Shown here: piece after piece, positions 20,880 to 23,800 of the stretch
Layout: the number at the start of each line of letters is the position of its first letter
How positions within the stretch are numbered: the first letter of the stretch is position 1
Origin: Candidatus Microgenomates bacterium
Lineage (GTDB): Bacteria > Patescibacteriota > Microgenomatia > UBA8517
DNA: 64,000 nucleotides
NCBI GenBank assembly: GCA_049523135.1
Contig: JBEKNE010000001.1
Span: 542,809 to 606,808, forward strand
Reading direction: 5' to 3'
Position numbers and translations under genes: made by a program
The notes under the pieces: model-generated
What the model was told of the DNA's origin: nothing
What the model saw: only the letters and a program-made list of their open reading frames with translations
Databases searched by the model: none

Positions 20880-23800
20880 ATGGCACAAAATAAAGGCAGT
20901 GAATATACGGCAGAACAAATCCAGGTCCTGGAAGGGTTAGAACCGGTCAGAAAAAGACCTGGGATGTACATCGGTTCAACTGATGCCAGAGGACTTCATG
21001 AATGTTTAAGGGAAATAGTTGATAACTCCGTTGATGAAAGTTTTGCCGGAGTTTGCGACACAGTTTGGATATCTCTTAATAAAGACGGATCTGCAACTGT
21101 CAGGGATAATGGGAGGGGAATTCCAGTCGAAAAACAAAAAAAGACGGGTATTTCAGCATTGGAGTTGACTATGACTAAACTTCACGCCGGGGGAAAATTT
21201 GGCGGAGGAGCTTATAAAGTTTCAGGAGGACTTCACGGAGTGGGAGCATCCGTTGTTAATGCCCTTTCTTCATACTTTAGAGTCGTAGTTCTTAGAGACA
21301 ACAAAGCTTATTATCAGGAATACCACAAAGGCAAGCCCGTCAAAAAGGTTAGTGAAATCAATCAAGAACAACTTAATAAATGGTTTCCAGAAAGCTGGGG
21401 AATAAAAGTCAGTGCAAACCAAACCGGCACAATTACAACTTTTGTACCCGATAAAGAAATTTTCGGAGACCTGAAACTTGAAAACAACAAGGCAAAGAAT
21501 CTTCTTCGCGATAGGGCATACCTTGTTGCCGGACTGACTTTCCATTTTATCGATGAAAATGACGGTGATGAAGCAACTTTCTATTTTGAAGGCGGAATAA
21601 AATCCCTTGTTGCCCACAGTAATAGAGGCAAAAATGTTCTAACAGACGTCGTTTATATCTCAAAAGATAACGGAGTAATTTCCTGCGAAGCGGCACTTCA
21701 GTATTCGGATTCATTTAATGAAAATGTAAAAGGGTTTGTTAACGGAATTTATACAACTGACGGCGGAACTCATGTAACAGGATTTAGAATTGCCCTGACC
21801 CGTTCCATTACCGATTACTACAAAAGAATGCAAAACGGAAACGGGAAAGAGGAAACAACATTTACGGGAGATGATATGAAGGAAGGTTTAACCGCCATAG
21901 TCTATATAAAAATGCCTTCCGAAGCCTTGCAATTTGAAAGCCAGACAAAAGCTAAGCTAAATAATCCCGAAATTCAGGGATTTGTGGCAACTGTTGTTAA
22001 AGAAGGACTTGATACTTATTTTGAAGAACATCCGGCAGATGCCAGAAAAATTGTAGAAAAAGTAATGCTTTCTGCCCGTGCCAGACTAGCCGCACGCGCC
22101 GCAAAAGATGCAGTCCTCAGGAAAGGGGCTCTCGAAGGAGCGGCTCTTCCCGGAAAACTTGCCGATTGTCAGAGTTCCGATCCTGAAGTTTCGGAATTAT
22201 ATCTGGTGGAGGGTGACTCTGCCGGTGGTTGTTTTTCAGGAAATACTAAAATCGCCCTTGCAGACGGAAGAAATATAACTTTTAAAGAACTTGTAAAAGA
22301 AGATTGCCAAAATAAGAAAAATTATTGTTACAGCATTAGGAAGGACGGAAATATCGGCATTTCTTTAATAAAGAATCCGCGAATAACCAAAAAGAACACA
22401 TCAGTTATCAAAATAGTTCTCGATAACAACGAAGAAATCACTTGTACACCAAATCACTTATTTATGCTGAGGGACGGATCATATAAAAAGGCAGTGAATC
22501 TCAAAAGTACAGATTCCCTGATGCCTCTTAGACGACAATTTTCTAAAATTGGCAGAAGAATAACAATCGAAGGATATGAGATGGTTTTTGACACAAAGGA
22601 TATGAGATGGATTTTTACTCATATGCTCTCGGACAAATACAATTTGGAAAACAGTGTCTATGATGAACTAAAATGGCCATATAGACACCATATTGATTTT
22701 AACAAACTGAACAATAATCCGGACAATATAACAAGACTTACAAAAGAAGAACACCTGAAGCTCCACTCAAGTAAGATCAAACAAAATCTTTTAAGACCTG
22801 ATGTGTTGGAAAAACTTGTAAAACTTAGAAAAACTCCAGAATTTAGAGAAAAAATGAGAAAGGTTATGCTTATGCCAAAAACAAGAAAGCTCCTTAGTGA
22901 AAGAGCAAAAAAACAGTGGCTAGACGCAAATTATAAAAAATATATGGCTGATAAATTTTTAGAGTTTTATAACAATAATGAAGAGTACAGAGAAAAAAGT
23001 TTAGAAATTCTTAAAAAATCCCAGAAAAAATATTGGTCAAATATAGACAATCGACGTCTACAGTCTGAAAAGGTTAAAAACTTTTTTGAAACACATCCTG
23101 AACAAAAGAAGTTATTAAAACAACTGTCCGAAAAACAATGGCAAAATTCAGAGCTTCTTGAATGGAGAAGTAAAAAAACCAAAGAACAATGGACAGATGG
23201 GTTCCGAAAATCAAGAAAGATTTCTTATAACAAAATATATCTAATAAAAGCTCTACGAGTTTTAAATCAAATATACAAAGATTACGGTGAAGTAGATATT
23301 GATAAGTATCAGAAAATAAGACAGAAAACAAACGATAAGTCTTTAGTAAAATATCAAACAATTCTTTTGAGGTTTTTTGACGGAGATAGTAAAAAGTTGC
23401 AAACTGCAGTTACAAACTATAATCACAGAATCAAAAAGATTATCCGATTGGAAAAAAGAATTGATGTTTATGACCTTGAAGTAGAAAAAACGCATAATTT
23501 TGCCCTCGCTGGCGGAATATTTGTCCACAACAGTGCCAAGCAGGGAAGGGATAGAAGGCATCAGGCAATCCTTCCTTTAAGGGGAAAGATTTTAAATACC
23601 GAAAGAATACAGCTTGATGCTATTGTAAAATCCGAGGAAATTAAAAATTTAATTGTTGCTCTAGGCTGCGGAATCGGAGATTCTCTGAATTACGACAAAA
23701 TTCGGTACCACAGAATAATTATTATGACCGATGCCGATGTCGACGGTTCTCACATTAGTGCCCTGTTTCTAACTTTCTTCTATAGACATATGCCGGAAAT

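Follow-up and report, generated by a model that had tools for sequence, protein, structure and literature searches.

Insertion Site and Gene Structure

What is the long in-frame insert that splits the gyrB gene of a Candidatus Microgenomates bacterium, and is it still mobile? The gene lies on contig JBEKNE010000001.1, in a stretch of 64,000 nucleotides (nt) that was analysed as a whole and is called the window here. Our analysis indicates that the insert, a class-1 intein of the "EGDSAGG|S" allele family of GyrB, is very likely mobile and bifunctional, with predicted roles in both splicing and homing. The evidence comes from its junctions, its domains, the conservation of its catalytic residues, and its distribution.

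The flanks of the insert matched HATPase_c, DNA_gyraseB, Toprim, and DNA_gyraseB_C in Pfam, and Toprim (model positions 13–89) and DNA_gyraseB_C resumed on its 3′ side. The window GyrB scored 836.9 bits with the NCBIfam model NF004189 (cut-off 740). Model positions 1–639 of the gyrB equivalog TIGR01059 spanned residues 9–1086 of the precursor, across the insert. At the 5′ junction, TGT (Cys1, 22230–22232) directly follows GDSAGG. At the 3′ junction, CAC AAC (His-Asn, 23526–23531) precedes AGT, the Ser codon at the start of SAKQGRDR. The first-pass annotation had placed an intein at 22230–23531, between GDSAGG and SAKQGRDR, with a His-Asn/Ser junction. The base-by-base reading showed that these boundaries were exact and that the junction residues were correctly assigned. 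Removal of the intein leaves a 652-amino-acid (aa) GyrB with an unbroken EGDSAGG-SAKQGRD Toprim motif. The fused intein-less gyrB site reads ...GGTGACTCTGCCGGTGGT up to the insertion point and AGTGCCAAGCAGGGA... after it. A 558-aa protein from a 3.9-kb JGI metagenome contig (P0001) is a fragment identical to the window GyrB, and an exact look-up of the full-length window GyrB returned no record.

The GC content of the intein was 31.3%, against 42.2% in the N-extein and 39.8% in the C-extein, which is about 9–11 points lower. Such a low GC content is compatible with a foreign origin. Misassembly and an insertion sequence were both rejected on the basis of the reading frame, the two junctions, the fold, and the hundreds of homologues at the same site.

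Table 1. Coordinates of the gyrB gene, its exteins, and the intein domains in the window
Feature	Intein residues	Positions	Strand	Remarks
gyrB open reading frame (ORF)		20880..24140	+	Precursor of 1086 aa; spliced product would be 652 aa
N-extein, 450 aa		20880..22229	+	Ends in Toprim motif ...VEGDSAGG; read directly from the sequence
Complete intein, 434 aa		22230..23531	+	1302 nt, in frame, without a stop codon
Hint-N	1–104	22230..22541	+	TIGR01445 on residues 1–79; beta strands in the model
Block B, T-P-N-H	73–76	22446–22457	+	T73 and H76 invariant in 45 sequences
HNH (beta-beta-alpha-metal) nuclease	105–185	22542..22784	+	
HNH core motif	Y151–H179	22680–22766	+	
Basic helical repeat array, about 167 aa	186–352	22785..23285	+	Nine modelled helices; 17-residue W-type units
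Three short helices	353–397	23286..23420	+	Putative helix-turn-helix-like end of the arm
Hint-C, ends ...GIFVHN	398–434	23421..23531	+	TIGR01443 on residues 412–434
C-extein, 202 aa and stop codon		23532..24140	+	Opens with nucleophile Ser+1 (23532–23534) in SAKQGRDR

Splicing Domain

The splicing domain was recognised by three models. Pfam Intein_splicing matched across the insert (E 3.7e-20), and TIGR01445 (E 2.3e-12) and TIGR01443 (E 1e-7) matched the intein above their curated cut-offs, with 32 bits against 15.6 for TIGR01443 at the C-terminus. The N- and C-terminal segments together form the Hint fold. The insert carries Cys1, a Thr-x-x-His block B, and His-Asn before Ser+1, and it lies in frame at a conserved host site, as in class-1 inteins. 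In an alignment of 45 family sequences, V413, Y414, D415, N423, F424, A425, L426, H433, and N434 of Hint-C were invariant. Cys1 was present in every full-length relative extracted; the extraction pattern demanded Cys, so this count is not an independent test. The insert is a complete class-1 intein and is probably active. Splicing is expected because the motifs are intact and gyrB is essential.

HNH Nuclease Domain

The nuclease nested in the intein has the beta-beta-alpha-metal fold. H153, H154, N162, and N166 were invariant across the 45 family members, and H175 and H179 were kept in at least 90% of them. We propose that H154 is the general base, N166 the structural Asn, and H175 and H179 the metal ligands. 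Pfam HNH_3 matched 35 of the 45 relatives (best E 4.5e-5), and PHROG HNH families matched the intein at 1.9e-7 and 6.3e-7. LAGLIDADG profiles gave no match in the GyrB intein, whereas the two other inteins of the window matched LAGLIDADG_3. The earlier assignment of the nuclease to HNH rather than LAGLIDADG was therefore upheld, and the domain can be described as an I-HmuI-like His-Me finger with its key residues invariant in the family. No NCBIfam family matched the nuclease and arm region. A PDB sequence search with the intein found intein splicing domains only, plus TetR and cytochrome b5 noise.

I-HmuI of Bacillus phage SPO1 (PDB 1U3E) is a free-standing, intron-encoded enzyme of 174 aa, whereas the window nuclease is nested in an intein. 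When the intein was aligned with I-HmuI, phiKZ gp296, and phiA8-29 gp017, H154 (column H42) and N166 (N54) were the sole identities in all five sequences. His175 falls at the last Asn ligand of I-HmuI in an alignment judged by eye. I-HmuI has Asn as its last metal ligand and two linker helices, while the window intein has His175 and about nine helices. I-HmuI also carries NUMOD4 at its N-terminus and an I-HmuI_NUMOD-like domain at its C-terminus, neither of which was detected in the window intein.

Distribution and Conservation of the Intein Family

The homology search with the intein returned 656 protein matches. Among the 120 matches listed, only GyrB domains or the intein splicing domain were found, and the names were gyrase B or generic; several were named "intein-containing DNA gyrase subunit B" in NCBI. 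The listed relatives aligned with the entire query (100%) at 42–61% identity and with E values as low as 1e-175, and the best named ones were Patescibacteria of the candidate phyla radiation (CPR), at 61% identity. When one genome per species was scanned, relatives of the GyrB intein turned up at no fewer than 581 loci. The insertion pattern G[DE]SA[GA]G|C...HN|[STC][AG][KR] was present in 37 of the 120 listed matches and at 65 genome loci. The GyrB intein occurred in Patescibacteria, Woesearchaeota, Nanoarchaeota, Micrarchaeota, Thermoplasmatota, Methanosarcinales, Elusimicrobia, Nitrospirota, and cyanobacteria (Planktothrix, Pleurocapsa, Pseudanabaena, and Waterburya).

Complete inteins could be extracted from 103 members, of which 95 were 429–436 aa long. 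This pattern, mostly full-length members with a few shortened ones, is the one expected from the homing cycle. Mean pairwise identity was highest in Hint-C (70%) and Hint-N (60%), and it fell to 54% in HNH, 47% in the repeats, and 39% in the terminal bundle. Since the identity of the HNH and repeat regions comes close to that of Hint-N, the nuclease and the arm are under constraint.

The window intein is a member of a long-known and very widespread GyrB intein family and is not new. The 1990s already saw reports of HNH inteins in GyrB, and such inteins serve as protein-engineering tools. The family is presumably that of the GyrB intein of Synechocystis sp. PCC 6803 (Ssp), which we take to have the same insertion site and about 435 aa. 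A 1997 study reportedly found that the Synechocystis intein carries an HNH nuclease. The Ssp GyrB intein is widely used as a mini-intein and as a split intein. Against a mini-intein sequence attributed to Ssp GyrB, the window intein showed about 48% identity over 144 N-terminal columns (E 1e-44), and the 49 aa at the C-terminal end were 61% identical (E 4e-17). When the N-half is limited to the part that is truly equivalent, roughly 105 aa, its identity is higher. A database search with the N-intein of this sequence found 12 short GyrB fragments and no Synechocystis entry. The two inteins differ in host lineage, as the host of the Ssp GyrB intein is a cyanobacterium. Both the splicing and the endonuclease domain of the Ssp GyrB intein are documented (PMC3620165).

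The family is related to inteins in many other genes. HNH_3-type inteins were found in phage genes, including the dCTP deaminase of Aphanizomenon phage CL131 and SP-15 gp022, in RtcB (NCBIfam NF052663), and in many viral contigs. Some other viral HNH-intein junctions, judged by eye, resemble portal and terminase proteins. These inteins share the Hint domain, the nested HNH_3, and a helical or helix-turn-helix (HTH) arm, and are 25–50% identical to the window intein over the full length. They differ in host genes and sites, and a strong W-repeat array is limited to the GyrB allele (MID hidden Markov model (HMM) ≤16 bits elsewhere). The first-pass annotation had implied that an HNH intein is a rarity. 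This view was overstated, as the allele is found in hundreds of species and phage genes often carry related HNH inteins. As an intein, the window element adds little, because GyrB HNH inteins are already named by annotation pipelines. One allele that is shared by 581 or more species of CPR bacteria, DPANN and other archaea, and cyanobacteria, nearly always in full length, is nevertheless a good natural system for studying cross-domain homing.

Two IMG/VR contigs (L090, 98.9 kb, and L107, 161 kb) that are classed as viral carried a GyrB-like protein with the same intein at the same site. One intein is full length (432 aa), and the other, in L107, has 283 aa and keeps only the first repeats. The contigs could be cellular ones that were misclassified, or their topoisomerase genes could be carried by phages and serve as vectors.

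Basic Helical Repeat Arm

The region between the nuclease and Hint-C was described in the first-pass annotation as about 170 aa of Lys/Glu-rich helical repeats. The repeats are genuine, and the stated composition needs a small correction. Residues 186–352 contain 26% Lys and Arg and 13% Asp and Glu, with a net charge of +22, and are thus Lys/Arg-rich. They are built from 17-residue repeats with the consensus P-E-[YF]-R-x-K-h-S-E-x-x-K-x-x-W-x-D. The W-type units of the window intein are at residues 203–213, 216–232, 262–271, 273–283, 290–306, and 313–323. The three peptide strings cited in that annotation as HNH and NUMOD3-like motifs were located at residues 151–179, 203–230, and 290–321.

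Comparison of family sub-alignments showed that residues 214–250 match residues 288–322 with an hhalign probability of 97%. A third copy at residues 250–288 was weaker (40%). The arm positions W230, Y235, Y247, W304, L309, W312, Q320, W321, F325, R326, and R329 were invariant in the 45 sequences. The nine arm helices had a predicted local distance difference test (pLDDT) score above 90 in the domain-only model and of 60–91 per 10-residue block in the whole-intein model. Pfam matches to Fascin, Glutaredoxin, and Fasciclin were dismissed as sub-threshold noise from K/E-rich helices.

Relation of the Arm to NUMOD3

NUMOD3 is a minor-groove helix motif of I-TevI-type endonucleases, and the motifs of the arm had been likened to it. 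Pfam NUMOD3 (PF07460) had no match in the window intein (E ≤ 10) or in the 45 relatives (E ≤ 1), and NUMOD1 and NUMOD4 had none in either at E ≤ 1. The check that the first-pass annotation had itself proposed, a match to a NUMOD profile, was thus negative for all three families. The NUMOD3 positive controls did match: I-TevI and six relatives scored 19–60 bits, and P0223, a free-standing protein described below, scored 48 bits. Direct membership of the arm in NUMOD3 was rejected because the profile is silent on the intein and its relatives while the controls match.

Profile comparisons gave a weak signal of a more distant relationship. The intein units scored 11.4 by hhalign against a 17-unit NUMOD3 profile (probability 33%), and none of 30 permuted controls reached this score (≤6.6). 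W-units of free-standing proteins scored 14.1 against the same profile (probability 72%), and none of 50 permuted controls reached it (≤7.2). Both comparisons aligned in the same expected register, E-x-[RK]-x-K-h-S-E; the unit profiles are small, hand-built, and hand-registered on Trp, and the sequences are compositionally biased. An early, crude NUMOD3-unit HMM gave a weak signal, with a median of 5.3 bits against −0.3 for shuffled sequences. A weak signal was also obtained by hhalign on the whole arm, where one helix (188–201) scored 16 against ≤9.4 for the controls.

The intein units resemble NUMOD3 in a length of about 17–18 aa, in one basic helix per unit, and apparently in the core register x-E-x-[RK]-x-K-h-S-E. 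Like NUMOD3 in modular homing endonucleases, they come after the nuclease and ahead of a terminal HTH, which is putative in the intein. Each unit closes with an invariant Trp-x-Asp/Asn and then Pro, where NUMOD3 has Gly-Lys. From these sequence comparisons, the arm repeat is probably a distant sibling of NUMOD3. What remains of the NUMOD3-like assignment is therefore a set of real repeats whose weak profile similarity beat all controls, without a Pfam match in any of the 45 members.

W-Repeats in Free-Standing Nucleases

The repeat region alone was searched against 1.84 billion representative proteins, and 108 proteins were found. Free-standing multi-repeat proteins ranked below the GyrB inteins, with library-wide phmmer E values from 1.2e-13 (P0178) to 7.5e-4. 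Free-standing carriers of the W-repeat are P0178, P0217, P0218, P0220, P0221, P0223, P0227–P0231, P0235, P0236, L170:1066-2010, and L002:3145-4065. Their arrays consist of 4 to more than 12 tandem 17-residue units. The sequences and a Pfam scan showed that the partner domains are GIY-YIG, HNH/HNH_3, and Vsr/DUF559/REase-like. In P0223, GIY-YIG and W-repeats stand in tandem with canonical NUMOD3 (48 bits) in a single chain.

P-E-[YF]-R-x-[KR]-h-S-E-x-x-K-x-x-W-x-[DN] is the consensus derived from 64 units. The profile of the intein units matched that of the free-standing units with a probability of 96.7% and a score of 24.4, which none of 50 permuted controls reached (≤10.4). An HMM built from free-standing units only found six units in the window intein (23.4 bits; shuffled sequences ≤3.8). 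Its median across the GyrB intein family was 14.4 bits.

Two phage proteins carry the same repeats. The HNH homing endonuclease gp017 of Aeromonas phage phiA8-29 (315 aa) has an HNH domain and then the repeats "...EEYREKMSAAIKKSWGDEEFREKRSAAIKKSW...". In gp023 of Bacillus phage SP-15, a zinc finger is accompanied by the repeats, and the C-terminal end shows a weak match to Phage_endo_I that stays below the threshold. The two proteins were reached by way of tblastn and a chance neighbour. The intein-family HMM scored 19.8 bits on phiA8-29 gp017 and 15.1 bits on SP-15 gp023, and none of 1000 shuffles reached these values. The Pfam NUMOD3 HMM had no match in the free-standing repeat proteins tested, namely these two. 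In phiA8-29 gp017 and P0221, HNH directly precedes the repeats, as in the window intein. The free-standing W-repeat nucleases differ from the intein in having no Hint domain, in their more regular and often longer arrays, and in their varying nuclease domain.

No dedicated Pfam family for the W-repeat appeared in the scan. Instead, the arrays were matched by GerD, in 8 of 15 proteins with a best E of 3.7e-23, and by STI1-HOP_DP. Since the GerD model picks up the W-repeat, it also gave faint matches on the two phage proteins and on GyrB inteins. The labels "GerD" and "STI1-HOP_DP" on these arrays look like a mis-annotation of an uncurated nuclease-associated repeat, and recognising the W-repeat as a module of its own would correct the misleading "GerD" calls. 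Through the arm, inteins are linked to a large repeat module that seems to be uncurated and accompanies no fewer than three nuclease folds. We tentatively suggest that the W-helices form a DNA-binding module in their own right, a nuclease-associated sibling of NUMOD3 whose arrays might read long targets unit by unit. If each unit contacts DNA, the repeat is relevant to the engineering of modular homing endonucleases and to the question of how they assemble recognition sites that are both long and tolerant.

In SP-15 (L002), the HNH-intein gene gp022 (1350–2969) adjoins gp023 (3145–4068), which is labelled "holliday junction resolvase", so that two mobile-nuclease-type genes stand side by side. 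Another protein found with the repeat query, P0198 (1082 aa), contains six near-identical repeats of about 90 aa, "...FFEKHPQHFHISDE...", and matched the "FFETHPEQ" segment of the query (E 3.4e-8). It is probably a repeat-inflated chance match and seems unrelated to nucleases.

Proposed Mechanism and Alternatives

Taking I-HmuI and I-TevI as models, we infer the following steps of splicing and homing from the motifs, folds, conservation, and distribution observed above. Once the precursor is translated, its two Hint halves (residues 1–104 and 398–434) would fold together. Cys1, Thr73/His76, His433-Asn434, and Ser+1 would then be used to excise the intein and ligate the exteins. The catalytic Toprim motif would be restored, and the essential gyrase would thus be made. 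The excised intein would bind the intein-less gyrB site via its long basic arm, which comprises about six W-units (186–352) and the three-helix bundle (353–397). The I-HmuI-like HNH finger (residues 105–185) would nick or cut the intein-less allele near the insertion point, and recombinational repair would copy the intein gene into the cut allele. Active homing is consistent with the 656 matches, the presence in at least 581 species of bacteria and archaea, the length of 429–436 aa in nearly all of them, the conserved nuclease and arm, and the low GC content.

Several points weigh against an active mobile intein. The score of Pfam HNH_3 on residues 153–175 of the window intein was 18.4 bits (E 0.0017), below the gathering score of 24.8. 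Decay does occur in the family, since 8 of the 103 extracted inteins were shortened (313–412 aa). The GC deficit comes partly from a composition rich in Lys, Asn, and Glu, as the GC content at third codon positions (GC3) was 0.29 in the intein and 0.33 and 0.39 in the exteins. The relative placement of the helices is uncertain (predicted template modelling score of 0.60 and 0.39 in the two models), and the NUMOD3 profile is silent on the arm. DNA binding by the repeats and the site of cleavage are suggested only by analogy. Three other explanations were considered, and all of them are less likely than a mobile intein.

The endonuclease part could be a decaying relic, in an intein that splices, is inherited only vertically, and no longer homes. 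The sub-threshold HNH_3 score fits this explanation, and so do the shortened relatives of 283–412 aa, which the homing cycle also predicts. A relic would not be expected to keep its catalytic His and Asn residues invariant in 45 sequences, along with 11 mostly aromatic positions of the arm. Nor does decay agree with the constant length of 95 of the 103 members, with an HNH identity of 54% against 60% in Hint-N, or with a patchy distribution that crosses domains of life. We consider this explanation unlikely.

The helical repeats could also serve as a structural spacer or an oligomerisation rod, like the GerD superhelix, instead of binding DNA in the manner of NUMOD. The Pfam GerD and STI1 DP models pick up the repeat, NUMOD3 does not match it, and the conserved Trp, Tyr, and Phe could make a hydrophobic core. 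Such a role of the arm is, in our judgement, decidedly unlikely.

It is highly improbable that the intein has become a switch which lets GyrB be made only under conditions that permit splicing, and that it is retained for the benefit of the host rather than as a selfish element: the insertion in the catalytic motif of an essential enzyme and the two further inteins in replication and recombination genes of the window are circumstantial, nothing in the sequence requires a switch, and the conserved nuclease and DNA-binding arm would be superfluous where mini-inteins would suffice.

Other Features of the Window

The window contains three inteins with two nuclease types, and gyrA (31573..34224) has no intein. 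A 737-aa Xer-like tyrosine recombinase (38611..40827, −), with a Phage_integrase domain and an N-terminal SAM-like domain, is interrupted by an intein in which Intein_splicing matched residues 278–685 and LAGLIDADG_3 residues 470–552. To our knowledge, an Xer-type recombinase is not a classic intein host. A 933-aa DnaB helicase (60281..63085, −) carries a LAGLIDADG_3 intein at residues 230–709.

Two ORFs, 28170..30263 (+) and 44353..46779 (−), encode proteins of 697 and 807 aa that had no Pfam match at E ≤ 1e-5. Upstream of gyrB, a short gene resembling DNA polymerase III delta′ (20266..20874, +) ends 5 bp before it, and a PilB-type T2SSE ATPase (18441..20177, −) lies on the other strand. An H+-pyrophosphatase (25121..27268, +) is located downstream. 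An S-adenosylmethionine (SAM) riboswitch (Rfam RF00162, 46.2 bits, just above the gathering score) was found at 37229–37326 (+). It stands directly upstream of the SAM synthetase gene metK (37301..38386, +) and overlaps its listed GTG start. Only one tRNA was found in the whole 64 kb, at 54770–54855 (+).

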